A stretch of DNA of 64,000 nucleotides from Escherichia coli (GTDB lineage Bacteria > Pseudomonadota > Gammaproteobacteria > Enterobacterales > Enterobacteriaceae): assembly GCF_016026235.1 (NCBI RefSeq), contig NZ_CP065613.1. One strand, written 5' to 3'. Below, one piece after another: positions 1-46,358 of the stretch; position 1 is the stretch's first letter, and each line of letters begins with the position of its first letter. The notes beneath the pieces were generated by a model, which did not search any database, was not told the DNA's origin, and was given only the letters and a program-made list of their open reading frames with translations. The position numbers were made by a program, and so were the translations under genes.

Positions 1-1
1 C

Positions 2-916
2 ATGAATCAAACTGTCGCGGTGACGGGCGCTACCGGTTTTATCGGTAAATATATTATCGATAACCTGCTCGCCCGCGGCTTTCACGTTCGCGCATTGACG
101 CGTACTGCCCGCGCTCACGTCAATGACAATCTCACCTGGGTGCGCGGTTCGCTGGAAGATACTCATTCACTTAGCGAACTGGTTGCCGGAGCCAGTGCGG
201 TGGTCCATTGCGCTGGGCAAGTGCGCGGACACAAAGAAGAGATTTTTACCCACTGTAACGTTGACGGCAGCCTGCACCTGATGCAAGCGGCAAAAGAGAG
301 CGGCTTTTGCCAACGTTTTCTGTTTATCTCTTCGCTGGCGGCGCGCCATCCCGAGCTCTCCTGGTACGCAAATTCCAAACACGTCGCCGAACAACGGCTG
401 ACTGCAATGGCTGACGAAATTACGCTGGGCGTTTTTCGCCCGACAGCCGTGTATGGTCCCGGCGATAAAGAGTTAAAACCGCTGTTTGACTGGATGCTGC
501 GCGGCCTGCTGCCACGACTTGGTGCACCAGATACACAGCTCTCTTTCCTGCACGTCACCGATTTTGCGCAAGCAGTGGGTCAGTGGTTAAGCGCCGAAAC
601 TGTACAGACGCAAACCTATGAATTATGCGATGGCGTCGCTGGCGGCTATGACTGGCAACGCATACAGCAACTTGCCGCCAACGTCCGTTGCGGTTCCGTG
701 CGAATGGTTGGTATTCCTCTGCCGGTACTCACCTGCCTTGCGGATATCAGTACCGCGTTGAGTCGCCTGGCAGGTAAAGAACCTATGCTGACCCGCTCGA
801 AAATTCGTGAATTAACCCACGCCGACTGGTCGGCAAGTAATAACCGTATTTCTGAAGATATTAATTGGTTTCCCGGGATTAGCCTGGAACACGCATTACG
901 CAACGGGCTATTTTGA
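2..916 (+). CDS. NAD(P)-dependent epimerase/dehydratase-family (extended SDR) reductase
   Basis: 304-aa ORF; N-terminal Rossmann motif VTGATGFIGK; YANSK (YxxxK) catalytic motif; start codon at 2-4. Confidence 0.8.
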   Translation: MNQTVAVTGATGFIGKYIIDNLLARGFHVRALTRTARAHVNDNLTWVRGSLEDTHSLSELVAGASAVVHCAGQVRGHKEEIFTHCNVDGSLHLMQAAKESGFCQRFLFISSLAARHPELSWYANSKHVAEQRLTAMADEITLGVFRPTAVYGPGDKELKPLFDWMLRGLLPRLGAPDTQLSFLHVTDFAQAVGQWLSAETVQTQTYELCDGVAGGYDWQRIQQLAANVRCGSVRMVGIPLPVLTCLADISTALSRLAGKEPMLTRSKIRELTHADWSASNNRISEDINWFPGISLEHALRNGLF

Positions 917-947
917 TTGTCTTGTTTAAAGGTGTGTTAACGTTTCT

Positions 948-1196
948 ATGGTAAATCGTGAAATAGTAATGGATTACATCCTTTCCTGTTTACAGGATTT
1001 GGTCGAAAACGGTGTGGAAATTAAGCCCGACAGCGATCTCGTCAACGATCTTGGCCTGGAGTCGATCAAAGTGATGGATCTCTTAATGATGCTGGAAGAC
1101 AGATTCGATATTTCCATTCCTATTAATATTCTGCTGGATGTCAAAACCCCTGCGCAATTAATGGAAACTCTACTTCCATGGCTGGAGAATAAATAA
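948..1196 (+). CDS. acyl carrier protein-like small acidic protein
   Basis: 82-aa ORF; DLGLESI motif resembling the ACP phosphopantetheine attachment site (DSL); stop overlaps start of next gene. Confidence 0.65.
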   Translation: MVNREIVMDYILSCLQDLVENGVEIKPDSDLVNDLGLESIKVMDLLMMLEDRFDISIPINILLDVKTPAQLMETLLPWLENK

Positions 1197-2368
1197 TGGG
1201 GCTATACGATAAATATGCGCGCCTTGCTGGCGAGCGACTGCAATTTAGTGACAACGGGTTAACACCGTTTGGCACCTGTATTGATGAAGTGTATTCCGCC
1301 ACCGAAGGCCGGATCGGCAATAAAAAAGTGATTCTGGCCGGGACCAATAATTATCTCGGTTTAACCTTTAATCATGATGCCATCAGCGAAGGTCAGGCAG
1401 CGTTAGCGGCCCAAGGCACCGGCACCACCGGTTCTCGTATGGCAAACGGCAGTTATGCGCCGCACCTGGCGTTAGAGAAAGAGATTGCCGAGTTTTTCAA
1501 TCGCCCTACCGCTATCGTTTTTTCAACCGGTTATACCGCTAATTTAGGCGTCATCAGCGCACTTGCCGACCATAACGCCGTGGTGTTACTGGATGCCGAC
1601 AGCCACGCCAGTATTTATGACGCCTGTTCTCTCGGTGGCGCGGAAATTATTCGTTTCCGCCATAACGATGCTAAAGATCTGGAACGGCGCATGGTTCGCC
1701 TCGGTGAACGGGCGAAAGAGGCGATTATCATCGTTGAGGGCATCTACAGCATGCTCGGTGACGTTGCGCCGCTGGCGGAAATTGTTGATATCAAACGTCG
1801 TCTCGGTGGTTATTTGATTGTCGATGAAGCGCATTCGTTTGGCGTGTTAGGCGCAACAGGGCGCGGACTGGCTGAAGCTGTCGGCGTTGAAGATGATGTG
1901 GATATTATCGTTGGTACTTTCAGTAAAAGTCTGGCCTCGATTGGCGGTTTTGCTGTCGGTTCGGAAGCGATGGAAGTGCTGCGCTACGGCAGCCGCCCGT
2001 ATATTTTTACCGCCTCTCCTTCTCCGTCCTGCATTGCGACCGTGCGCTCGTCGTTAAGAACTATTGCCACACAACCAGAGCTGCGGCAAAAGCTGATGGA
2101 TAACGCCAACCATCTGTATGACGGTCTGCAAAAACTGGGTTATGAGTTAAGTTCACATATTAGCCCGGTAGTGCCAGTAATAATCGGTTCGAAAGAGGAA
2201 GGTTTACGCATCTGGCGCGAGCTTATCTCGCTGGGCGTGTATGTGAATCTTATCCTGCCGCCTGCCGCGCCTGCAGGCATCACGCTGCTGCGCTGTAGCG
2301 TAAATGCTGCCCACAGTCGTGAGCAAATCGATGCCATCATTCAGGCATTTGCTACTCTGAAGCAGTAA
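1196..2368 (+). CDS. PLP-dependent alpha-oxoamine synthase family acyltransferase (BioF/Kbl/serine-palmitoyltransferase-like)
   Basis: 390-aa ORF; conserved VDEAHSFG and GTFSKSL (PLP-binding Lys) motifs typical of class-II aminotransferase alpha-oxoamine synthases. Confidence 0.85.
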   Translation: MGLYDKYARLAGERLQFSDNGLTPFGTCIDEVYSATEGRIGNKKVILAGTNNYLGLTFNHDAISEGQAALAAQGTGTTGSRMANGSYAPHLALEKEIAEFFNRPTAIVFSTGYTANLGVISALADHNAVVLLDADSHASIYDACSLGGAEIIRFRHNDAKDLERRMVRLGERAKEAIIIVEGIYSMLGDVAPLAEIVDIKRRLGGYLIVDEAHSFGVLGATGRGLAEAVGVEDDVDIIVGTFSKSLASIGGFAVGSEAMEVLRYGSRPYIFTASPSPSCIATVRSSLRTIATQPELRQKLMDNANHLYDGLQKLGYELSSHISPVVPVIIGSKEEGLRIWRELISLGVYVNLILPPAAPAGITLLRCSVNAAHSREQIDAIIQAFATLKQ

Positions 2369-2373
2369 TGTGA

Positions 2374-2401
2374 GCCCGCCGTGGTGTTTGCGCCACGGCG
2401 G
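2374..2401. terminator. bidirectional stem-loop between convergent operons
   Basis: inverted repeat cccgccgtgg / ccacggcggg with 8-nt loop, followed by ttt. Confidence 0.5.
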
Positions 2402-2403
2402 GT

Positions 2404-3483
2404 TTAATGTTGTCTGTCATACCAATACACCAGGCTCAACGCCACCAACACAAACGCTACCGGTAAACCGAGCGCGGTAACAGGTGCGCTTAACGCAAAT
2501 AGCAATCCCAGATTAACCATGATTTGATAGCTGATCCAGGTGAGTAAGCCCACGATGACGCCTACAGCGAGACGGCTACCCATCCCAGGCGAACGCGGGG
2601 CAGTAAAGGTAAACGGCACAGCCAGCAAAATCATCGCCAGGGTCAGGATGGGTTGCCCCAGTTTTTCCCACAGTGCAAGGCGGTATTCGCTGCTGGGTTG
2701 CCCGGTTTCCTGCAAATAATGGATGTAATGATTAAGCTGACGGACAGAAAAAGTATTCCCCGGCATTGATAACTCTTCAAGATTCATACTGGTGAAGGCC
2801 GATTGCCAGGCAAGATTATCTAATGTTTCCAGCGTTTCTTTGCCATTCAGCCATTTTTTATGATTCACACCATGCAGGACCCACGTTTTGTCGTCTTTAA
2901 TGGTGGCACTGCGTGCATAAATGTAGGATTCAAGCGAGAGATCGTCGGGATAATGAAATATCTCCACGCCCACCGGCTGGCCCTGCTCGTTCAGCGATTT
3001 CACCGTCACAAATTCATTACCACGCCTGGCCCACAGCATATTGCCGGTAATGTCATCGTCCTCCCCCAACGCGGTGGCGGTCGATTTGATTTGCAGCGCC
3101 TGTTGCTGCAATGGCGACGCCACCCACTCATCTATCGCGCCTAACGAAACAGTCCACAATATCCCGGCAACCAGCGCCACCAGTGCAATACGGAAGATAG
3201 AAAACCCCGTGCTGCGAATGGCGGTAAGCTCACTGTTTTTCGATAACTGCCCCAGGCCAACAATCCCTCCCAATAAGGCGATAAACGGCGAAAGTTCGAC
3301 CAGTGTGCGCGGTAAGGTCATTAGCACCACCAGCACCGCCTGAGTCCAGCGATAACCGCCCGGGCTGACATCATCCAGTTCGTTAATCAGGTTGAAGGTG
3401 GTAAAAAGCGGCAGCAATAGCCCTGCGGCGGCGGCAAAACCGAGAAAGAGATGACGGATTAAATAGCGACTGAAAACATTCAT
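2404..3483 (-). CDS. LptG-like (YjgP/YjgQ family) permease paralog
   Basis: ORF 2404-3564; likely start at internal Met (MNVFSRYLIRHLF) giving a 4-bp overlap with the upstream gene; multi-TM protein with C-terminal similarity to LptG. Confidence 0.7.
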   Translation of the reverse strand: MNVFSRYLIRHLFLGFAAAAGLLLPLFTTFNLINELDDVSPGGYRWTQAVLVVLMTLPRTLVELSPFIALLGGIVGLGQLSKNSELTAIRSTGFSIFRIALVALVAGILWTVSLGAIDEWVASPLQQQALQIKSTATALGEDDDITGNMLWARRGNEFVTVKSLNEQGQPVGVEIFHYPDDLSLESYIYARSATIKDDKTWVLHGVNHKKWLNGKETLETLDNLAWQSAFTSMNLEELSMPGNTFSVRQLNHYIHYLQETGQPSSEYRLALWEKLGQPILTLAMILLAVPFTFTAPRSPGMGSRLAVGVIVGLLTWISYQIMVNLGLLFALSAPVTALGLPVAFVLVALSLVYWYDRQH

Positions 3484-4550
3484 CGGGAAAATTTCTGCAG
3501 CAAAGAGAAGTCGCGTGCGACCAGCATCAGCAGGCCCATTAGCATGAGTCCGGGTACTAACCACAAACCAGGAATGAGGGGAATCGCGCCGTTAGCCACC
3601 AGCGTACGGCAGACGTCGCCGCCATAAAAAATGGCAATAAACAGCAACGTCAGTGGCAATAATGTTGAAAATCGCCCTTGCCGCGGTTTTACCCGACTTA
3701 ATGAAATGGCCAGCAGCGCCATCAACAATGCTGTCAGGCCACGGCTTTGCCGCCATTGCAGTTCGGCATGATCGGCAGGAAATACAGAGCGTGCCAGCTC
3801 CGTGACCGATTTTGCTTTGCGTTTGACGTTAGGGCTTTGATCCAGCGGATTCAGATGTAATTGCAGATTACGGTAGATCTGTTCATTGTCGTCACGCCCC
3901 TGATGATCGAGAAGATAGGCAGTGCCGTTGTGCAACATAACGGTCGGTTTCTCGGGTGATGGGTCAACCACATCAACCGAACGGGCGCGGAAAATGCGGG
4001 TTCGATTGGCAGTAGAAGTATAAATCAGCGCGTCAGTCAGGCGATTATTATCCTGATCAACCGTCTGCGAAAGGATCATTCGTCCGTTATCGTTAGTGTT
4101 AAATTTCTTTGCCCGCAACTGGCGAACATCCAGCTCCGACTGCGACTGCTGCTCCAGTTGATAAATCTGCGCATAAGCCCACGGACGACCATACATCGAC
4201 AGAAGGGTGACAAAAATACTTAGCGGTATCGCCAGATAAAGAACGGCTTTGTACAAGCGTCCCGGACTGCCCCCCGCCGCAGAGATAGCGGTAATTTCCG
4301 AGTCGGTATACATCTGCCCTAGCGTCACGCCAACTGACACATACAGACCAACAGGTAACAACATCTCCAGTGCAATCAGCACTTTGTAGAAAACGATATC
4401 CAGCACAACATCAAGAGCTAATGTCCCATTTGCCGCTTCGGTCAGATAACGCTGTGCGGAGTAGCTGGCGAAAATAAAGATCAGAAAACCGACGATAATC
4501 AGCACCAGACGGCGCGTACCACGCATGATGTAGTGTTCAACCAGCTTCAT
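3480..4550 (-). CDS. LptF-like (YjgP/YjgQ family) permease paralog
   Basis: 356-aa ORF; motif LGQMYTDSEITAISAAG resembling the conserved LptF/LptG segment; multi-TM. Confidence 0.7.
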   Translation of the reverse strand: MKLVEHYIMRGTRRLVLIIVGFLIFIFASYSAQRYLTEAANGTLALDVVLDIVFYKVLIALEMLLPVGLYVSVGVTLGQMYTDSEITAISAAGGSPGRLYKAVLYLAIPLSIFVTLLSMYGRPWAYAQIYQLEQQSQSELDVRQLRAKKFNTNDNGRMILSQTVDQDNNRLTDALIYTSTANRTRIFRARSVDVVDPSPEKPTVMLHNGTAYLLDHQGRDDNEQIYRNLQLHLNPLDQSPNVKRKAKSVTELARSVFPADHAELQWRQSRGLTALLMALLAISLSRVKPRQGRFSTLLPLTLLFIAIFYGGDVCRTLVANGAIPLIPGLWLVPGLMLMGLLMLVARDFSLLQKFSR

Positions 4551-4580
4551 CTCACTAACGCCCTCAATCCTTTGAATTTT

Positions 4581-5144
4581 TTATTCATTGATCAGTTTCT
4601 GCGCCAGCGCAATGACATGATCTACCTCTTCCGGCGTCAGGCTGCCGTCCTTTGCCCACTGAATTTGCCCGGTTTTATTCAGCACCAGAATGGTTGAACT
4701 CTGCTCCGGCAAGCGCCAGGCAACGCGTCCCTGTCCATTGCCGTCAATAACGAATTGCGCCCACGGATAGCGGCGTTTATTTTTTTCGATTTTGCCAACG
4801 ACAAAATAGCCAGTACCAAAGATGGCATCATCAGTGTTCACAATGGTGGTGGGCTGAAAACGATCCTGTGGAAAGTTTGCCGCTTCAACCGCTTTAATTA
4901 ACAGTGAGTTCTTCTTCTTCGCTGACTTACGCCCGGCGATATACTGGATAATGCGGACTTTTCCCGCCAATTGTGTGCTGTTCCACTTTTGGTAGTGAAT
5001 TTCGTCGTCGCTATTCAGAAGCAGCTCGCCGCCTTCCTGAATATAAACAGGGGTAACCGTTTTGCCAGTGACGAAATTGTGTGCCTGCACACCCGGGGCT
5101 AAGAGCATGATAATCAGCGCAATAATCAAACGAGATGACATCAT
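4581..5144 (-). CDS. secreted/periplasmic protein of unknown function
   Basis: 187-aa ORF with an N-terminal signal-peptide-like segment (LIIALIIMLLAPGVQA). Confidence 0.5.
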   Translation of the reverse strand: MMSSRLIIALIIMLLAPGVQAHNFVTGKTVTPVYIQEGGELLLNSDDEIHYQKWNSTQLAGKVRIIQYIAGRKSAKKKNSLLIKAVEAANFPQDRFQPTTIVNTDDAIFGTGYFVVGKIEKNKRRYPWAQFVIDGNGQGRVAWRLPEQSSTILVLNKTGQIQWAKDGSLTPEEVDHVIALAQKLINE

Positions 5145-5152
5145 TGCTCCGG

Positions 5153-5977
5153 TTATAGCGGAAAACGCGAAATCAGCAGCTCTAAGCGCTGGCGAATATC
5201 GCTATCCAGCGCCACCGGTGCATCATACGACTGGCGGTTTTCCATATCATCCGCCACCATGTCGTCGTGTTTATCCCCCATCAGGCCATTAATGGCGGCG
5301 AGGAAACGGGAAATCTGTAACGCCTCTTTATTTTCAGGATCAAGCGATCTTAAGGTGTCGTAATAAGAAACCTGCTGGCTGATGATTTTTCGCACATCAT
5401 GAAATTCCCTGCCGGTTAGTCGCGGTTTGGCAATTATCTCTTTCAGGGCATGCATTTGCTTTTGCCGATAGGCAATAAAACCGCTTACGCTTTCTAACTG
5501 GCTATGGCGTAATGAATAGTTCACCAACGACCAGACCGGAGAGCTTAAATAAATTCGTAACAGGTTGCCGTAATACGACACAATATTTTTCTTACCGTTA
5601 CGAAATCCGTCCTGAAAACGTCCCAGAAAAACGGTCGTTTTGCCGAATAAAAATCTGGCCTGATGCTTTTTTAAATACAGCCGTTGTGCAAAACGTAGAT
5701 GCTTGTAGCGCGCTCGCATGTATTTAAACTGTTTACGCTCGTCTGTCGTCAGCTCATCGCCTTTGGCTTGTTTGCGAATTAAACGAAGTAATTCCTGACG
5801 ATCAACGCCATTGAGCCAGAATTGCAGGCATAACGCGTAATTATCATGGATGATTTCGGTGGTACAACATAGTGCGATAGTCGGCGGCAAACTGACCTGG
5901 GCATCAACAACATCATCTTCCTCAATCGCAACAAATAGATGCTCGCTCGCCTCAAGCGGGAAATATTTTCTCATCAT
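5153..5977 (-). CDS. hypothetical protein (possible counterpart of the K-12 yghO pseudogene)
   Basis: 274-aa ORF, in operon orientation with flanking genes; no motif recognised. Confidence 0.45.
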   Translation of the reverse strand: MMRKYFPLEASEHLFVAIEEDDVVDAQVSLPPTIALCCTTEIIHDNYALCLQFWLNGVDRQELLRLIRKQAKGDELTTDERKQFKYMRARYKHLRFAQRLYLKKHQARFLFGKTTVFLGRFQDGFRNGKKNIVSYYGNLLRIYLSSPVWSLVNYSLRHSQLESVSGFIAYRQKQMHALKEIIAKPRLTGREFHDVRKIISQQVSYYDTLRSLDPENKEALQISRFLAAINGLMGDKHDDMVADDMENRQSYDAPVALDSDIRQRLELLISRFPL

Positions 5978-7326
5978 CAGGATTTCTCTCCGGCTGCGTT
6001 ATAAAGCAAGGAATGGCGCTGAAAAAAAGCCTTTAAGATCGGAATTAGCGAAAGCACCACATCCAGACATTGACCGCCGAAATAAGCAAACGCTGCTCCC
6101 AGCACGCCAAACAGATGACAGAACATGAACAGCAATACGATGTAGCCGATTGAGGCGATGGTTTGCGCCACGAGAAAAGCGCGCTGTTTTCCCGCCATCA
6201 ATAGCAATGACTCCTGAGGGAAGCCCAGCATCGAGATCACAATTGCGCCCAGCATCACCTGAATCAGGTCATACGCTTCGAGATACTTAACGCCAAACAC
6301 CAGCGAAATGAGCGGCTTGCCGACGATCAACACCGCGAGCGCCACCAGAATACCGATTCCGCCCGCCAGTAAACCGGACTTCACACCTAACAACCACGGT
6401 CTGGTGGTGCGCGGATCTAAACGCATCACCTCTGGGTAAAAACTTTTACCCAGCAAACCCGCTGGCGTTCCGGCGGCGTCGAAGAATGTCATGGCGATTT
6501 TAAATAACCCGGCGACAGCGGGTCCTAACACGATCCCCACCAACACTGTGCTGCACGAGTTACGCGCCGACCAGATGGAGTGGGCAATGTTGGTTGACCA
6601 GACAAAACTCCACGCGCCTTTAATGTGTCGGGCAGACTCAAACAGATTCAATTTGAAGGCGTTATGGATATTTCTGCGGCGTAATTCGCGCGCGGCAAAC
6701 CACCAGTACATGGTGCCGCCAACCAGATTCGACACGTACCAGGCAATAACAAAACCCGCAAAACCAAAGTCAAAATACCAGGCTGCGACGCTCCCCGCTG
6801 CGCGCAGAAAAGGTTTCGTCGCCTGCTGTACAGCAATCAAATCAAAGCGATCTACCGCACGCAGAATGCCGGTCGGCGTGGAGGAAGCCATTGAAGGAAT
6901 GAGCGTGCAATACAGCGCTGCCAGCCAAAAGCTTTGGTCATCCAGACCTAATGAATGGGAAAGAAAAGGGAGTAAGGCAATGCCGCCGACAATCGCCACC
7001 GCGCCGCTGACGATATCCAGCGAGAAGGAAAATGAGACGACATTGCGAAATTGCTGCGGATTATTGTTGGTTAATGCTGGTGTTCCGTACTGAACCACCA
7101 GCTGCCATGTCTGAAACTTAATAAAATCGCTGATCGACTTGGCGTACGATTGCACAATCACCAGTACGCCAAACATGGCGGGCGTCATCCCTTTACCGGC
7201 ACACGAGAGCGCCAACAGACCCAGCAAGGCGCTCACGACATTACTGGAGCCTAACCAGGCGCTATTGCGAATAATGGTGCGAAACGCGCCATCTGCAAAC
7301 CAATGTTTGATGTTAAAACCCGCCAA
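5977..7326 (-). CDS. yghQ: polytopic inner-membrane protein, flippase-like (polysaccharide-biosynthesis/MOP type)
   Basis: 449-aa highly hydrophobic ORF; position immediately before yghR as in K-12. Confidence 0.6.
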   Translation of the reverse strand: MAGFNIKHWFADGAFRTIIRNSAWLGSSNVVSALLGLLALSCAGKGMTPAMFGVLVIVQSYAKSISDFIKFQTWQLVVQYGTPALTNNNPQQFRNVVSFSFSLDIVSGAVAIVGGIALLPFLSHSLGLDDQSFWLAALYCTLIPSMASSTPTGILRAVDRFDLIAVQQATKPFLRAAGSVAAWYFDFGFAGFVIAWYVSNLVGGTMYWWFAARELRRRNIHNAFKLNLFESARHIKGAWSFVWSTNIAHSIWSARNSCSTVLVGIVLGPAVAGLFKIAMTFFDAAGTPAGLLGKSFYPEVMRLDPRTTRPWLLGVKSGLLAGGIGILVALAVLIVGKPLISLVFGVKYLEAYDLIQVMLGAIVISMLGFPQESLLLMAGKQRAFLVAQTIASIGYIVLLFMFCHLFGVLGAAFAYFGGQCLDVVLSLIPILKAFFQRHSLLYNAAGEKS

Positions 7327-21191: not shown

Positions 21192-21379
21192 TTATAGTTA
21201 TTCCGTTGCGAAGACCTGGCATATATTTTGCCTCAATCGCAAAATCAATAATGCGATCGATGCGCCATTTACCACACATTTATTATGGTTATCGATATCA
21301 TGATACTGCGGCGGGGCGCTAAAACGAAGGGAAGAAGCATTAGTGTAATTAATTAAAGCAAGATAATACGTATGTTTGA

Positions 21380-21667
21380 TCAATTTTCGAGGCGATAACC
21401 GGCCATAAAAAAGCGCAACGTAGAACAGGAATTATTCTCACGAAAGAAATCCATTACCATCTCTTTATCCAGTCCATAGCGGCGCGTCAGAATACCCGCT
21501 TCCCAGGCGCTAAGCTGGCGATCTCCGGTCTTTTCGTACATCCGGTGTGAGTAGCCTAATACAAAACCGCGTTTATAATCGGCACAGAATTTTGTCACAT
21601 TAACCGCACTGTCGGCATGCGTTGCTTTTAATCCCGCCATTAAGCCTTTACCAAAATGGTTATTCAT
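21380..21667 (-). CDS. yghW: small protein of unknown function
   Basis: 95-aa ORF upstream of the hyb operon. Confidence 0.7.
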
Positions 21668-25529: not shown

Positions 25530-25750
25530 ACCTGATGTGGCGAAAACGCCTTATCCGCCTACAAACGCATGAAGATTCAACATGTTGCAATAGATTTTGT
25601 AGGCCTGATAAGCGTAGCGCATCAGGCATTGAGCACCTAATGCCGGATGCGGCGTGAACGCCTTATCCGGCCTACAAACGCACGAAGATTCAACATGTTG
25701 CAATAGATTTTGTAGGCCTGATGAGCGTAACGCATCAGGCAATTCTACTT
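25530..25750. repeat. BIME-type cluster: tandemly duplicated unit of about 105 bp containing REP palindromes
   Basis: two near-identical copies of gccttatccg...caaacgca.gaagattcaacatgttgcaatagattttgtaggcctgat.agcgta.cgcatcaggca. Confidence 0.7.
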
Positions 25751-26175
25751 TACTTCGCTTTGGCGGTTTCTTCGCCGACCAGACCTATCTTCAGGTAACC
25801 CGCCTGATGCAGCGTATCCATTACCTTCATCAACGTCTCGTAATCGACGGTTTTGTCCGCTCGGAAGAAGATGGTGGTGTCTTTCTTACCTTCGGTTAAC
25901 GCATTCAACGCCGTAATCATTGTTTCATCGGTGACCGGATCGTTACCGATAAACATCGAGTTGTCTGCCTTCACCGACAGATAAACCGGTTTTTCCGGGC
26001 GCGGCTGCGGCGTGCTGGTAGAAGCAGGTAAGTTCACCTTCACATCTACCGTCGCTAACGGTGCCGCCACCATAAAGATAATCAGCAGAACCAACATCAC
26101 GTCGATAAACGGCGTCACGTTGATATCATGCATTTCGCCGTTATCATCGAGGTTTTCGTTAAGATGCATTGCCAT
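25750..26175 (-). CDS. exbD: TonB-system biopolymer transport protein
   Basis: 141 aa. Confidence 0.9.
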   Translation of the reverse strand: MAMHLNENLDDNGEMHDINVTPFIDVMLVLLIIFMVAAPLATVDVKVNLPASTSTPQPRPEKPVYLSVKADNSMFIGNDPVTDETMITALNALTEGKKDTTIFFRADKTVDYETLMKVMDTLHQAGYLKIGLVGEETAKAK

Positions 26176-26181
26176 CGGACA

Positions 26182-26916
26182 TTATCCTGCACGTAATTTT
26201 TGTGCGACACGAACCGGATGCGCAGCGGCGCTGGCTTCCAGATCCAGGTCACGGCTTTGCAGCAACAATACCTGCGCTGCGACATCACCCAGCATCGCTT
26301 TAAAGCCGCCAATCTGACGCGCGAATACGTTATAGATAACGACCGCCGGAATCGCTGCCACCAGACCGATTGCCGTTGCTAACAGAGCTTCTGCGATACC
26401 CGGCGCAACGACTGCCAGGTTAGTGGTCTGCGTTTGCGCGATACCAATAAAGCTGTTCATGATGCCCCAGACCGTACCAAACAGACCAACGAACGGCGAA
26501 ATCGCGCCGATGGTTGCCAGATAGCCGTTACCGCGGCCCATTTGACGACCTACTGCGGCGACCCGACGCTCCAGACGGAAGCTGGTACGTTCTTTAATAC
26601 CTTCGTTATCGTCGCTGCCTTCTGACAGTTCCAGCTCATTCTGCGCTTCATTGAGCAAATGCAGGCTTAAGCTTTTGCTACCAAAATCAGCGGCGATATC
26701 GTTGGCCTGGTTTAAGGAACGCGCTTCAGCCAGCAGTTGCTGCTCGCGCTTAAGGCGACGCTTCTGATTGAAGAACTCTACGCTCTTACTGAAGAAGATT
26801 GCCCAGGTGACTACGGAGGCCAAAATAAGCCCAATCATCACGCACTTAACGACAATATCGGCGTGCTGATACATACCCCAGACGGAAAGGTCCGTCTGCA
26901 TTAAATTATTACCCAC
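26182..26916 (-). CDS. exbB: TonB-system biopolymer transport protein
   Basis: 244 aa. Confidence 0.9.
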   Translation of the reverse strand: MGNNLMQTDLSVWGMYQHADIVVKCVMIGLILASVVTWAIFFSKSVEFFNQKRRLKREQQLLAEARSLNQANDIAADFGSKSLSLHLLNEAQNELELSEGSDDNEGIKERTSFRLERRVAAVGRQMGRGNGYLATIGAISPFVGLFGTVWGIMNSFIGIAQTQTTNLAVVAPGIAEALLATAIGLVAAIPAVVIYNVFARQIGGFKAMLGDVAAQVLLLQSRDLDLEASAAAHPVRVAQKLRAG

Positions 26917-26949
26917 TGTGTATCTCCAGGACGCAAGTCACAAAATCTG

Positions 26950-27000
26950 CGCATAATAATATCAAAACGACGTCGAATTGATAGTCGTTCTCATTACTAT
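26950..27000 (-). promoter_or_regulatory. candidate Fur box(es) in the exbB promoter region
   Basis: gcataataatatc and gaattgatagtcgttctcattactatt resemble the GATAATGATAATCATTATC consensus, 35-85 bp upstream of exbB. Confidence 0.4.
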
Positions 27001-27167
27001 TTGCATACTGCCGTACCTTTGCTTTCTTTTCCTTGCGTTTACGCAGTAAAAAAGTCACCAGCACGCCATTTGCGAAAATTTTCTGCTTTATGCCAATTCT
27101 TCAGGATGCGCCCGCGAATATTCATGCTAGTTTAGACATCCAGACGTATAAAAACAGGAATCCCGAC

Positions 27168-28355
27168 ATGGCGGACAAAAAGCTTGATACTCAACTGGTG
27201 AATGCAGGACGCAGCAAAAAATACACTCTCGGCGCGGTAAATAGCGTGATTCAGCGCGCTTCTTCGCTGGTATTTGAGAGTATGGAAGCCAAAAAGCACG
27301 CGACGCGCAATCGCGCCAATGGCGAGTTGTTCTATGGACGGCGCGGAACGTTAACCCATTTTTCCTTACAACAAGCGATGTGTGAACTGGAAGGTGGCGC
27401 AGGCTGCGCGCTATTTCCCTGCGGGGCGGCAGCGGTTGCTAATTCGATTCTTGCTTTTGTCGAACAGGGCGATCATGTGTTGATGACCAACACCGCCTAT
27501 GAACCGAGTCAGGATTTCTGTAGCAAAATCCTCAGCAAACTGGGCGTAACGACATCGTGGTTTGATCCGCTGATTGGTGCCGATATCGTTAAGCATCTGC
27601 AGCCAAACACTAAAATCGTGTTTCTGGAATCGCCGGGTTCCATCACTATGGAAGTCCACGACGTTCCGGCGATTGTTGCCGCCGTGCGCAGTGTGGTGCC
27701 GGATGCCATCATTATGATCGACAACACCTGGGCAGCCGGTGTGCTGTTTAAGGCGCTGGATTTTGGCATCGATGTTTCTATTCAAGCCGCCACCAAATAT
27801 CTGGTTGGGCATTCAGATGCGATGATTGGCACTGCCGTGTGCAATGCCCGTTGCTGGGAGCAGCTACGGGAAAATGCCTATCTGATGGGCCAGATGGTCG
27901 ATGCCGATACCGCCTATATAACCAGCCGTGGCCTGCGCACATTAGGTGTGCGTTTGCGTCAACATCATGAAAGCAGTCTGAAAGTGGCTGAATGGCTGGC
28001 AGAACATCCGCAAGTTGCGCGAGTTAACCACCCTGCTCTGCCTGGCAGTAAAGGACACGAATTCTGGAAACGAGACTTTACAGGCAGCAGCGGGCTATTT
28101 TCCTTTGTGCTTAAGAAAAAACTCAATGATGAAGAGCTGGCGAACTATCTGGATAACTTCAGTTTATTCAGCATGGCCTACTCGTGGGGCGGGTATGAAT
28201 CGTTGATCCTGGCAAATCAACCAGAACATATCGCCGCCATTCGCCCACAAGGCGAGATCGATTTTAGCGGGACCTTGATTCGCCTGCATATTGGTCTGGA
28301 AGATGTCGACGATCTGATTGCCGATCTGGACGCCGGTTTTGCGCGGATTGTATAA
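27168..28355 (+). CDS. metC: cystathionine beta-lyase
   Basis: 395 aa from [15 protein letters not shown]; ORF extends upstream to 27033. Confidence 0.9.
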
Positions 28356-40902: not shown

Positions 40903-41447
40903 TAATTCTGATTCCTCAACTTATTCGCCAGCCTTCAAAGGGGCAATATTGCCGGAGATACTACATTATCTGCCGCGTCGAGTCACAGGAGATCAGCGTG
41001 AATAGCGCCGCCGGACGTGCTCCGACGGCGATAAAGGCATCAATGTGCCTTGATATACAACTCTTTGCTGTAGACTTGATCGGCATAGAGGGCAGCACAA
41101 GGTTGCGCCCATGCCACACCACTCGGCATGGGGGTCCGCTCCGGGCGATTCGAGAAGTTGAGGTTATGCGAGTCCAGGGAAGCCTAAAGCATCAAAGTAG
41201 TCGACTGTAAGTATACGGTTCAGCCCAGTTTAGCTGTGTCTCCACCAGTGCCCCGCGCCTCCTGCCATAAGTGCGGCTTGCTCATGGATACCCCCGAGAC
41301 GGCTTACGGCGCACCGGATAATAAATTTCGCGTATACATGGTATTCCTTACCGGAGAAATTATAAGCCCAACAACAATACGCCTGTGGCATTGTTCGCTC
41401 AAACTTATCGCGAGTGATTTGGCTCACACTCCGGTAAAGATTCCCCA

Positions 41448-41930
41448 TCACGCTAACGGCACATAAACATCCGTTTCCAGTCGCTGCTCTGTCACCCCTT
41501 CGGCAAGATTGGTGTAGTGAAACAGAATCGGTGCTTTACGCATTTTCTCGCCGCTTGCAGGCAGCCAGTGGCGAATAATGCCCCATATCGTGTGTGAAAT
41601 ATCGTCCAGCTCGCCAACGTGGCGGGCCACGGCATAACGTCCACCGGTAAGTTCACCATTGCTCACACCATAACGATTATCGGGAATCGGTTCGCTAACG
41701 CTGCCGCAGATATCAAAGCGAAACGCTTCCGGTGCGGTGGTGGCAGGGTCGTCCCAGGCGACGCCAAAAGTCTGGCTTTGGTTAACAGGAGAAAGCCCCG
41801 TCTCTTTACGCCACATGATAAATTTCGCCACACTGTAGTTGAGCAACTCAGGGCTACAGCGGTGCGGCAACATCGCCACAGGGATTGATGGGAAATCGAT
41901 AATGTTTACATCCAGTGTCAGGTTTGTCAT
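41448..41930 (-). CDS. ygiV: GyrI-like domain transcriptional regulator
   Basis: 160 aa. Confidence 0.8.
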   Translation of the reverse strand: MTNLTLDVNIIDFPSIPVAMLPHRCSPELLNYSVAKFIMWRKETGLSPVNQSQTFGVAWDDPATTAPEAFRFDICGSVSEPIPDNRYGVSNGELTGGRYAVARHVGELDDISHTIWGIIRHWLPASGEKMRKAPILFHYTNLAEGVTEQRLETDVYVPLA

Positions 41931-41982
41931 TTTGCCTCCCTGCGAAATTATTCCCGGGAACGCGTCCCGGGAGCGGTAACAA

Positions 41983-42375
41983 TTACGGATTTACTTTGCG
42001 GATCTGTTTGACGTCAATTTCAACAGAATTCCAGTCTTTATCGACTTCACCCTGAATCTCAACCGTATCTTTCGGCGTCACCGTCACACCGTTCCAGCGT
42101 TTGTGGTCGATATCAACATTGATAGTACCGCTGGCATCTTTAAACACGTAGAGATCGTCAGAGATGCGTTCAACGATATTGCCGCGCAGGGTTACCCAGG
42201 TGTCGTCACGCAGGGATTTTGCGCTTTCTACGGTCGTTACGCTGCCGTTCGGCCCCTGGAATCCTCCGGCCTGACTTTGCGTTGCCGATGGGCCAGAAAA
42301 ACCGCCCTGCTCTGCTGCCATCACCGGTGCGCTGCACAGGGCCATTACTGCGATTACTGCTGCGAATTTTTTCAT
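41983..42375 (-). CDS. ygiW: BOF/YgiW-family periplasmic stress protein
   Basis: 130 aa from MKKFAAVIAV with signal peptide. Confidence 0.8.
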   Translation of the reverse strand: MKKFAAVIAVMALCSAPVMAAEQGGFSGPSATQSQAGGFQGPNGSVTTVESAKSLRDDTWVTLRGNIVERISDDLYVFKDASGTINVDIDHKRWNGVTVTPKDTVEIQGEVDKDWNSVEIDVKQIRKVNP

Positions 42376-42526
42376 GTTTATTACTCCCTTTAATGTCTGT
42401 TTCCGAGCATTTAACAAGATAGTCCTTAACAACTTCTTAAGGGAAAAAAATAAAATTTAGTGCTGTACAGAGCGCGTTACAACACGGTTTACTGGCAGCA
42501 AATACGGTTATCGCAGGGATGAAAAA

Positions 42527-43186
42527 ATGCGAATTTTACTGATAGAAGATGACATGCTGATTGGCGACGGCATCAAAACGGGCCTTAGTAAAATGGGTTT
42601 TAGCGTCGACTGGTTTACACAAGGTCGTCAGGGAAAAGAGGCGCTTTATAGCGCGCCTTATGATGCGGTGATTCTGGATTTAACCTTACCAGGCATGGAT
42701 GGTCGCGATATTTTGCGCGAATGGCGAGAAAAAGGTCAGCGTGAGCCGGTACTGATCCTGACCGCGCGCGATGCGCTGGAGGAACGTGTAGAAGGGCTGC
42801 GTCTGGGAGCTGACGATTATCTGTGTAAACCTTTTGCGTTGATAGAAGTCGCCGCCAGGCTGGAAGCTCTGATGCGCCGAACCAACGGCCAGGCCAGCAA
42901 CGAGCTGCGCCACGGTAACGTCATGCTCGACCCCGGCAAACGTATCGCCACGCTGGCTGGCGAACCCTTAACACTGAAACCAAAAGAATTTGCCCTGCTG
43001 GAATTACTGATGCGTAACGCTGGTCGGGTACTGCCGCGCAAACTGATTGAAGAGAAACTGTATACCTGGGACGAAGAGGTCACCAGTAATGCCGTTGAAG
43101 TGCATGTGCATCATCTGCGACGCAAACTCGGTAGTGATTTTATTCGTACCGTGCATGGTATTGGCTACACATTAGGTGAGAAATGA
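42527..43186 (+). CDS. qseB: two-component response regulator (OmpR family)
   Basis: 219 aa. Confidence 0.9.
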
Positions 43187-44532
43187 AATTTACCCAACGT
43201 CTTAGTCTGCGCGTCAGGCTGACGCTAATCTTTTTAATTCTGGCCTCGGTGACCTGGCTGCTTTCCAGCTTTGTCGCCTGGAAACAAACAACGGATAACG
43301 TCGATGAATTGTTCGACACCCAACTGATGCTGTTTGCCAAGCGGTTAAGTACGCTCGATCTCAACGAAATCAACGCGGCGGATCGCATGGCACAGACGCC
43401 AAATAAATTAAAACACGGTCATGTTGATGACGATGCGCTGACCTTTGCCATCTTTACCCACGACGGCAGAATGGTCCTTAACGATGGCGATAACGGAGAA
43501 GATATTCCTTATAGCTATCAACGGGAAGGTTTTGCTGACGGGCAACTGGTGGGCGATAAAGATCAATGGCGTTTTGTCTGGATGACCTCACCTGATGGCA
43601 AATATCGCATCGTTGTTGGTCAGGAATGGGAATACCGTGAAGACATGGCGCTGGCGATTGTTGCCGGGCAATTGATCCCGTGGCTGGTCGCACTGCCGAT
43701 TATGTTAATCATCATGATGGTACTATTGGGTCGTGAACTCGCTCCGCTGAACAAACTGGCGCTGGCGCTGCGTATGCGTGACCCTGACTCGGAAAAACCA
43801 CTAAACGCGACTGGCGTACCCAGCGAAGTGCGTCCGTTGGTTGAGTCGCTAAATCAACTGTTCGCCCGCACACATGCGATGATGGTTCGTGAACGACGCT
43901 TTACCTCCGACGCAGCTCACGAACTACGTAGCCCGTTAACGGCGCTGAAAGTGCAAACCGAAGTTGCGCAGCTTTCTGACGATGATCCGCAAGCGCGGAA
44001 AAAAGCGCTGCTTCAATTACATTACGGGATCGATCGCGCTACTCGTCTGGTTGATCAACTGCTCACTCTATCGCGGCTGGACTCACTGGATAACCTTCAG
44101 GACGTCGCGGAGATCCCGCTTGAAGATCTCCTGCAATCGTCGGTGATGGATATTTACCACACGGCGCAGCAGGCGAAAATTGACGTGCGACTGACACTCA
44201 ATGCCCACGGCATCAAACGCACCGGACAACCGCTATTGCTAAGTTTGTTGGTGCGAAATTTGCTGGATAACGCCGTGCGCTACAGTCCACAGGGCAGCGT
44301 GGTAGACGTCACGCTGAATGCTGATAACTTCATCGTGAGGGATAACGGCCCCGGTGTGACACCAGAGGCACTGGCGCGAATTGGCGAACGCTTCTATCGC
44401 CCACCCGGACAAACCGCTACCGGCAGCGGGCTTGGGCTATCGATTGTCCAGCGAATCGCCAAATTGCATGGCATGAATGTTGAATTTGGGAATGCGGAAC
44501 AAGGTGGATTTGAGGCGAAGGTAAGCTGGTAA
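43183..44532 (+). CDS. qseC: two-component sensor histidine kinase
   Basis: 449 aa; H-box HELRSPL; 4-bp overlap with qseB. Confidence 0.9.
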
Positions 44533-44540
44533 CTTCTCTG

Positions 44541-44573
44541 TCTATGAGAGCCGTTAAAACGACTCTCATAGAT
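44541..44573. terminator. bidirectional stem-loop between qseC and ygiZ
   Basis: ctatgagag / ctctcatag inverted repeat followed by attttact. Confidence 0.5.
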
Positions 44574-44577
44574 TTTA

Positions 44578-44910
44578 CTAATAGCAAAATATAAACCGTC
44601 CCCAAAAAAGCCACCAACCACAAACCAGACAAATACCGAGCGAGAATACATATACCCAAAACTCGAACATTTCCCGCATAAAGAGTTTTCTTAAGATAAG
44701 AATAATAAGTGGCGTAAGAAGAAAAAATGCTGCAATCATTGCTTGCAATATACGATCTTCGCCTGAAACGGAAGGTATACTGCAAATATTGCCTCCCGAG
44801 TCAAGCATCCAGTCATACTTATTGAAAGCAAAAAAAGCATCTATTAACCAATAAGTAAGCATTATGTATAATAATGCTTCAAATATTGATAGTAGTTGTT
44901 TTTTTAACAT
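44578..44910 (-). CDS. ygiZ: small three-TM inner-membrane protein; candidate immunity protein for the upstream effector
   Basis: 110 aa, AT-rich, 6 bp downstream of the effector-like gene on the same strand. Confidence 0.7.
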   Translation of the reverse strand: MLKKQLLSIFEALLYIMLTYWLIDAFFAFNKYDWMLDSGGNICSIPSVSGEDRILQAMIAAFFLLTPLIILILRKLFMREMFEFWVYVFSLGICLVCGWWLFWGRFIFCY

Positions 44911-44916
44911 GTCTGA

Positions 44917-45627
44917 TTACTCATTAATCAATTTTTTGATATGTTCTCTAATCTCTAACAACCTCATACCATAAGAGATGAATTTATAATCATCTGTATC
45001 ACGCGCAGGCAAATTATTAATTAAATAAATAAAAAACCCCAAATCTCGTTCAACACCACGATTATATCTAATACCAGCCATAATATACTGCTCATTCGTC
45101 ATATACAGTGTTGCCGAAGAGGGATAATCAAAAAGGGCAAGATCTCTTAAATGAGTAGCAGCAATTTGAAACGTAAAATCATCTTCCATTAGGCATGTCG
45201 CTAACTCTAACTGATTTCTGGTAGTTAATTCTGAAGGGTCAAGACCTAGAGTAATCGCTGCGGTTCGTATTTGTATACCCATTGAGCCAAATGATGTTTT
45301 ATTTTCAGGCATATCTAACAATCCAATCATTCTTTTTGTTTCATATATCTGAAACTTATAATTTTCAGGCATACCTCCTGACTCAATCCAGGCCACACCG
45401 CCCAGTAACTCTGGACGAATCCCAGCGGCATATGCATGTTTAATTATTTTGTCCCTATTATATTGTACATATGCATCTTTATAAGCATTTAAATAATATA
45501 CTCCCGAACGGCGACGCGAATCATTTTTTCCTAACTTCCAGAGTAAAACGTCCATTTCATCCCATTTACGGAACTTAGTTTGTGGAATTGTACAATAGCT
45601 ATTTTTTATAGTGAGATCGCTTTTCAT
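44917..45627 (-). CDS. candidate T6SS cargo effector with lysozyme-like / lytic-transglycosylase-like motifs
   Basis: ORF 44917-45654; AT-rich; motifs AWIESGG, SMGIQIRTAA and AGIRYNRG resemble the ES / GLMQ / AYNAG motifs of SLT domains (weak, by eye). Confidence 0.45.
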   Translation of the reverse strand: MKSDLTIKNSYCTIPQTKFRKWDEMDVLLWKLGKNDSRRRSGVYYLNAYKDAYVQYNRDKIIKHAYAAGIRPELLGGVAWIESGGMPENYKFQIYETKRMIGLLDMPENKTSFGSMGIQIRTAAITLGLDPSELTTRNQLELATCLMEDDFTFQIAATHLRDLALFDYPSSATLYMTNEQYIMAGIRYNRGVERDLGFFIYLINNLPARDTDDYKFISYGMRLLEIREHIKKLINE

Positions 45628-45629
45628 AT

Positions 45630-46109
45630 TTAAAAAACCCTTTCTTCCCAACAACTATATGATTCCGTACTCGCGATATGGTGCTTCCATGTTATATTTT
45701 TATAATTAAGAACAATAACCTCTTCCGGTTGATTACCCGCATGTGTAATTGAGTGTGGATAACAAGTCAGAATATTCGATAAATGTGCCCCTTGCAATTC
45801 AATTGTGTAAAACCTTTCAATACAACCGCCAGAATTAATTCTATAAAAATTAAATATAGCTGATAACTCTTCATTTTCAGAAAGAGCAGCATTTAATAAA
45901 GGGGAGGATTTATCTATTGGCTTGTAAAATTTTATGGGGTGATGCACTACATTATATTCTCGACTTAAAGAATGGTCGAACTGCAAAACAAAAATTTCAT
46001 CCACATGATTTATTTGATATTTATTACCAATAGATGCATACGAACCACAGCCCTCAGAGATCAAACCTTGTGTTTTCCCTTTAATTGATAAGTATATGAT
46101 ATTTGACAT
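45630..46109 (-). CDS. hcp: Hcp-family type VI secretion tube protein (orphan)
   Basis: 159 aa; alignable along its length to enterobacterial Hcp1, including the C-terminal NYKNITWKH...SYSCWEE block. Confidence 0.8.
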   Translation of the reverse strand: MSNIIYLSIKGKTQGLISEGCGSYASIGNKYQINHVDEIFVLQFDHSLSREYNVVHHPIKFYKPIDKSSPLLNAALSENEELSAIFNFYRINSGGCIERFYTIELQGAHLSNILTCYPHSITHAGNQPEEVIVLNYKNITWKHHIASTESYSCWEERVF

Positions 46110-46358
46110 ATATATTCTCCATGATTATTTTTTCCGAAAAGCTCCTGTATCATTTGCATAATACATCTCTCCTGTGGGAACTTATGGGAAGTTGATTTCA
46201 GTATTGTCATTTTCAGAAAATATTTATCCTGCATCGGTGAGTCAGAGCAAGATCAGACTTTTGCTAAATTCGCAAAAGACTTTGCACATTTTGCTAATTT
46301 CACCGTACCGCTCTGTGACGTACTATAGTCGGCAAACGTCTCACCTTGAGGTTAAAAA

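Follow-up and report, generated by a model that had tools for sequence, protein, structure and literature searches.

A previously characterised Fur operator at the exbB-exbD promoter of Escherichia coli: extent, architecture and conservation

Organisation of the exbB-metC locus

The window, a stretch of 64,000 nucleotides of Escherichia coli DNA (contig NZ_CP065613.1), carries exbB at 26182-26916 (minus strand; start codon GTG, 26916-26914) and exbD on the same strand at 25750-26175, the two genes being separated by a gap of 6 nt according to both the ORF list and the RefSeq annotation. Together they form the regulated operon (25750-26916, minus strand), an assignment based on the ORFs, the RefSeq annotation and the joint derepression of both genes in delta-fur strains recorded in Gao 2023 (PMC10164565). 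A Shine-Dalgarno sequence, GGAG, lies at 26924-26927 on the minus strand, 7 nt before the exbB GTG, and is conserved in an alignment of 31 upstream regions. The divergent metC gene begins on the plus strand with an ATG at 27168, and the intergenic region of 251 bp is common to both transcriptional directions. Since the exbB GTG sits at 26916, the segment 26950-27000, for which the original prediction proposed Fur-like AT-rich sequences 35-85 bp upstream of exbB, is located 34-84 bp upstream of the start codon.

The window represents a non-K-12 E. coli, with approximately 98.6% identity to MG1655, and is colinear with MG1655 around exbB. A region of 401 bp around the segment of interest has 100% identity to many E. 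coli chromosomes and is present in 5422 of 5426 complete genomes. Two other parts of the window are non-colinear with MG1655, namely 1-6257 and about 41075-46178; their K-12 counterparts are IS5/yghO (the first 6.2 kb) and ygiS-mqsRA (41-46 kb), respectively.

Identification of the Fur box with a learned matrix

A naive count of matches to the 19-bp consensus GATAATGATAATCATTATC across the window gave 13/19 at 26980-26998. Because about 30 other positions in the window score equally well or better, this count was undecisive, and a position-weight matrix (PWM) was used instead. The top naive match of the whole window, 43698-43716 (GATTATGTTAATCATCATG), agrees with the consensus at 15/19 positions and is absent from the top PWM matches, a case which illustrates that consensus counting misleads for Fur.

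For de novo training of the Fur PWM, 19 K-12 upstream regions with well-established Fur control were collected, namely those of fhuA, fepA-fes, fepD-entS, fepB-entC, fur, fiu, efeU, fhuE, tonB, sufA, cirA, mntH, nfeF, bfd, feoA, ryhB, fecA, fecI and fhuF, with exbB itself excluded. A palindromic 19-mer EM motif search led from many seeds to AATGATAATCATTATCATT (14.5 bits), which is the classical Fur box in the 7-1-7 register. When the window was scanned with this matrix, the sequence at 26977-26995 ranked first of 63,982 positions; its score was 17.25 bits against the intergenic background and 19.0 bits against that of the window. The second-best match, at 46013, reached 11.4 bits. According to the exact score distribution, 17.25 bits corresponds to P = 7e-8 per position, or 0.005 matches expected by chance per 64 kb; in the 251-bp intergenic region the expectation is 0.00015, even at AT-rich composition. 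Among 200 simulated 64-kb windows (first-order Markov), only 2 contained a score equal to or above that of the exbB box. Among the 19 training sites, whose scores run from 8.1 to 22.1 bits, the median is the same as the score of the exbB box. The matrix scan that had been suggested as a check on the original prediction has thus returned a match far above background.

Further PWM matches of 9.8-11.4 bits, at 46013, 55413, 56314, 33556 and 20804, were rejected as being at or near chance level, 0.39 matches of at least 11.39 bits being expected per 64 kb. The one at 46013 (11.4 bits) falls at chance level within an ORF of a strain-specific segment.

A separate observation concerns the hybO-yghW intergenic region, where two Fur-matrix matches of 10.7 and 7.0 bits, 6 bp apart, occupy 21278-21302, at 87-105 bp upstream of hybO (start 21191); another, of 6.4 bits, is found at 21424-21442. 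The hybO Fur ChIP-exo peaks given for MG1655 and W3110 in Gao 2023 (PMC10164565) map to 21416-21428. The hybO site, associated with the hydrogenase-2 operon, would bring the Fur targets in the window to two.

Architecture of the operator

The core Fur box is an unstranded 19-bp imperfect palindrome at 26977-26995, defined by its PWM score of 17.25 bits, by its correspondence to the site of Chen 2007 and by its conservation. Its plus-strand sequence is ATTGATAGTCGTTCTCATT, which in the exbB sense becomes AATGAGAACGACTATCAAT; 12/14 positions agree with the 7-1-7 consensus TGATAATnATTATCA, and the centre of the box, 26986, precedes the exbB GTG by 70 bp. Two weaker Fur registers, likewise unstranded, overlap it at offsets of +6 and +12 bp; they extend over 26983-27007 and are indicated by the PWM, by the Chen 2007 cluster and by conservation. 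The first (26983-27001) scores 5.7 bits and the second (26989-27007) 4.2 bits, and no further register of the intergenic region has a positive score. Taken alone, these satellite scores are weak, with 10 matches (at 5.7 bits) and 22 matches (at 4.2 bits) expected per 64 kb; conservation over 26983-27007 is 0.89-0.95 among 31 genera or species. The operator is composed of one strong box and two weak overlapping registers on its distal side, and the resulting cluster of Fur sites spans 31 bp (26977-27007), 61-91 bp upstream of the exbB GTG.

Towards its distal end the cluster contains a decamer, CTATTTGCAT, at 26997-27006, which is common to the exbB cluster and the tonB Fur site. In a wider context the two loci read TCATTACTATTTGCAT (exbB) and TGATTGCTATTTGCAT (tonB, where the decamer occupies 1035-1044 of locus L010), with 14/16 positions identical. 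In exbB, 26997-27006 is more strongly conserved than its weak Fur score would suggest.

Conservation of the box within and beyond Enterobacterales

A scan for ExbB in species-representative genomes yielded 80 loci, ranging from Escherichia to Pseudomonas. At 61 of the 80 exbB loci, a box of at least 12 bits is present within 400 bp upstream of the codon equivalent to E. coli codon 1, and 6 further loci (Brenneria, Xenorhabdus, Photorhabdus and a MAG) possess a box of 16.2-17.3 bits located more than 400 bp upstream. Control segments taken from coding and downstream DNA, about 1.9 kb for each locus, reached even 10 bits in only 10/80 loci. Lineages encoding a long ExbB with an N-terminal extension still have the box upstream of the extended ORF, the distance to the first in-frame start of that ORF being about 55-130 bp at most loci.

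Across Enterobacterales the box takes the form AATGA[G/T]AAC[N]ACTATCAAT, and variation is confined to position 6 and the central spacer base, which are the two least informative columns of the PWM (0.16 and 0.26 bits). The alignment of 31 upstream regions delineates an island at 27007-26975 with 0.9-0.99 identity, the flanks being at 0.35-0.6. At the level of the species, most sequenced E. coli share the 66 bp at 26950-27015 with 100% identity, at least one mismatch occurring there in about 1200 of 5421 genomes. Both divergent genomes sampled have a C to T change at 26968, a position that is not part of the box. The same base is the first of a perfect 8-bp palindrome, CGACGTCG (26968-26975), which occupies part of the spacer separating the -10 from the Fur box and is moderately conserved among genera.

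At Pseudomonas exbB loci (L087-L099), a related conserved box, AACAAGAATNNNTTGCAAT, scores 8-14 bits by the E. coli matrix and lies about 100 bp upstream of the start of the extended ORF; in the three loci checked (L087, L092 and L095) it is promoter-proximal. This similar promoter-proximal position suggests that Fur control of exbB is older than the enterobacterial lineage.

Published binding and regulation data

The locus has been characterised experimentally in K-12. Chen 2007 (PMC2189734, Table 4) lists an exbB cluster of 3 sites over 31 bp, the best of which has 19.1 bits, with the cluster centre at U00096.2 3150076, -70 from the exbB translational start; this coordinate maps to 26986 in the window, the very centre of the PWM box. 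In the same work, an oligonucleotide with the exbB site was gel-shifted by 150 nM Fur, and a formerly proposed 'Fur box' upstream of exbD was negative. Chen 2007 (PMC2189734) also cites the microarrays of McHugh et al., in which exbB and exbD showed the same iron/fur regulation.

In vivo occupancy is documented by Fur ChIP-exo. Supplementary file 3 of Gao 2023 (PMC10164565) gives exbB peaks at 3150091-3150113 in MG1655 and 3150725-3150737 in W3110. The peaks were mapped via the annotated exbB starts, 3150640 (W3110) and 3151984 (NC_000913.3); the latter equals 3150006 in the older numbering and agrees with the -70 of Chen 2007. In window coordinates these unstranded peaks fall at 27001-27023 (MG1655) and 27001-27013 (W3110), abutting or overlapping the distal edge of the box cluster and centred 15-25 bp distal to the box centre. 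In the same study (PMC10164565) exbB and exbD are members of the core Fur regulon of nine E. coli strains, with log2 fold changes of 1.9-5.5 for exbB/exbD in delta-fur versus wild type across the nine strains. The proposed iron regulation of the TonB-system genes is thereby supported, on the strength of the top PWM match together with the published gel shift, ChIP-exo and delta-fur derepression, the last two from Gao 2023.

Promoter, 5' ends and their position relative to the box

A simple sigma-70 scan detected no exbB promoter in this region; conservation and 5'-end data served instead to place it. Besides the Fur island, the 31-sequence alignment contains a second conserved island, TTTGnTATnAT, at 26967-26956, within which an extended -10, TGaTATTAT, can be assigned to 26956-26964 on the minus strand. 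Its TG is at 26964-26963 and its hexamer, TATTAT, at 26961-26956, and Fur PWM scores here do not exceed 1.5 bits. No recognisable -35 hexamer was found upstream of the exbB -10, either by the promoter scan or by reading the sequence.

The E. coli supplements of Cappable-seq (PMC4782308), Rend-seq (PMC11092163) and ROSE (PMC10301672) contained no usable TSS entry for exbB. For Shigella flexneri M90T, supplementary file 3 of PMC7132871 lists TSS at 89146, 89152 and 89156, with the exbB GTG at 89177, and the 100-nt upstream sequence in the TSS table is the same as that of the window. The most upstream of these 5' ends, a G, corresponds to 26947 (minus strand), and the others to 26941 and 26937. 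As the M90T set is noisy, with about 2.7 TSS per CDS, these positions are supporting rather than decisive. The table also lists a 5' end at 89187, labelled 'primary', which maps to 26906, 10 nt within the exbB coding sequence, and probably reflects noise, RNA processing or an artefact of labelling in that set. A distance of 9 nt separates the -10 hexamer from the 5' end at 26947, 2 nt beyond the usual spacing. With +1 at 26947, the core box would extend from -30 to -48, the cluster reaching -60. Judging from the conservation of the extended -10 and from 5' ends taken from another species in a noisy set, the Fur box overlaps the core promoter.

Mechanism and alternative explanations

These data leave very little doubt that 26977-27007 is the Fur operator already described for the exbBD promoter, which acts in iron-replete repression. 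The sequence match and the conservation come from the present analysis; binding in vitro, occupancy in vivo and fur-dependent expression have been demonstrated in the literature. In the proposed mechanism, a Fe2+-bound Fur dimer occupies the 19-bp inverted repeat at 26977-26995, and further Fur probably binds the two weaker sites shifted by 6 bp, up to 27007, giving multi-dimer occupancy. The promoter appears to rely on the extended -10 (26964-26956), without a good -35, the exact geometry being approximate. Under iron-replete conditions bound Fur would cover the DNA directly upstream of the -10, which RNA polymerase needs, so that initiation at exbBD would be blocked, presumably by steric occlusion. 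At low iron, Fur departs, and exbB-exbD are transcribed along with tonB and the siderophore receptors.

Several other explanations deserve consideration. The 31-bp block might be conserved mainly as a part of the promoter, serving as an UP element or a -35 substitute, with Fur binding being secondary or weak. This is unlikely, yet it retains some weight: the block is positioned at about -30 to -60 of the inferred promoter, a canonical -35 is lacking, and the A/T-rich stretch 27007-26996 is conserved despite PWM scores of 4-6 bits. However, across dozens of genera the variation tracks the Fur matrix, affecting its two least informative columns only, and Fur binds the site in vitro and in vivo, with expression increased in delta-fur strains (PMC2189734 and PMC10164565). 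A promoter role is compatible with Fur control, the two not being mutually exclusive, and part of the conservation of the block may be promoter-related.

It is improbable that the region contains two separate Fur boxes, one at about 26950-26968, overlapping the -10, and another at about 26977-27000. The proximal run is indeed AT-rich and includes one perfect NATWAT hexamer (CATAAT), and Fur at high concentration extends along AT-rich DNA. Nevertheless, the PWM gives no register in 26948-26966 more than 1.5 bits under the window background, or as much as 0 under the intergenic one, Chen 2007 (PMC2189734) gives only the 31-bp cluster centred at -70, and the conserved positions spell TTTGnTATnAT, that is, an extended -10 and not a Fur half-site. 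The candidate proximal box at 26950-26968 (CATAATAATATCAAAA) was rejected on the basis of these PWM scores, at most 1.5 bits, and of the conservation pattern. The original prediction of plural Fur boxes over 35-85 bp upstream of exbB therefore holds in a modified form: it contained the top PWM match, 26977-26995, but in place of plural boxes spread over the interval there is one strong box with two weak overlapping registers on its distal side. The AT-rich run nearer to exbB belongs to the promoter -10, being no Fur site, and the cluster 26977-27007 exceeds the flagged end by 7 bp.

One may also hypothesise, with a rather slim chance of being right, that 27007-26996 (TATGCAAATAG in the exbB sense) is neither a satellite Fur register nor an UP element, being instead a site for a second factor co-regulating tonB and exbBD. 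This idea arises because the stretch is conserved far beyond its weak Fur score and because the decamer CTATTTGCAT recurs in the tonB promoter. An extra factor for anaerobic tonB repression was reportedly invoked by Young and Postle in 1994 and would be an example of a candidate for 27007-26996.

That the operator additionally controls the divergent metC has a very low probability. The 251-bp intergenic region is common to exbB and metC, but 182 bp separate the centre of the box from the metC ATG, tandem met boxes belonging to metC itself are found near that start codon (27134-27149), and exbB and exbD are the genes named as targets of the Fur site in PMC10164565. Control of metC through the exbB Fur site is accordingly unlikely. 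The met boxes in question, AGACATCC AGACGTAT, are situated just upstream of the metC ATG, with a three-box reading at 27126-27149; against two copies of AGACGTCT they match at 13/16 positions, the unique best match in 64 kb, and the expected MetJ operator of metC is, by its sequence, 27134-27149. Here a MetJ operator had to consist of two or more 8-bp met boxes (AGACGTCT) arranged in tandem and in register. By this measure a MetJ operator within 26950-27000 was rejected, the only element there being the single palindrome CGACGTCG (26968-26975), which agrees with the met box at 6/8 positions. Rfam covariance models gave no match at E-values up to 1 in 26700-27400 on either strand.

Finally, the match could be a fortuitous similarity, devoid of regulatory function, in intergenic DNA that is AT-rich. 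The naive count of only 13/19, equalled or surpassed at about 30 other window positions, might point that way, but this reading has practically no probability and is excluded by the 0.00015 matches expected in the intergenic region, the near-perfect conservation in Enterobacterales and the published binding and expression data.

The preferred reading is that of a Fur operator which was already known for exbBD, refined here in two respects: its extent is 26977-27007, and the AT-rich run on the exbB side is now ascribed to the -10. For annotation, its value consists in linking the iron control of the TonB energy-transducing system to a textbook Fur operator, with precise coordinates for the operator, the -10 and the likely start. 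Since the box is extremely conserved across Enterobacterales, it may also serve as a handy positive control for Fur-site scanners.

Comparison with known systems

An exbB 'Fur box' in E. coli K-12 was reportedly described by Eick-Helmerich and Braun in 1989. The K-12 exbB Fur site of Chen 2007 is found at the same locus and the same -70 position, with 3 overlapping sites 6 bp apart over 31 bp. Its strength, 19.1 bits, compares with 19.0 bits obtained here with a near-uniform background, and the operator sequence is unchanged in this non-K-12 window.

A parallel is offered by tonB, the partner gene of exbBD in the same energy-transducing complex. Like that of exbB, the tonB Fur site has overlapping registers 6 bp apart and contains the decamer CTATTTGCAT; it is located 54-60 bp before the start codon. 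By the same matrix, however, the tonB boxes are weaker (11.6 and 9.9 bits versus 17.25 for exbB), and the decamer points the other way with respect to its gene.

A broader similarity extends to the siderophore operators of the fepA-fes, fhuA, cirA, fecA and aerobactin iucA type, which share with exbB a 19-bp palindrome in 7-1-7 form placed over the core promoter, and promoter occlusion. Unlike these classical operators, exbB combines a single strong box with weak satellites, and its box is positioned on the -35 side of an extended -10 promoter, leaving the -10 itself uncovered.
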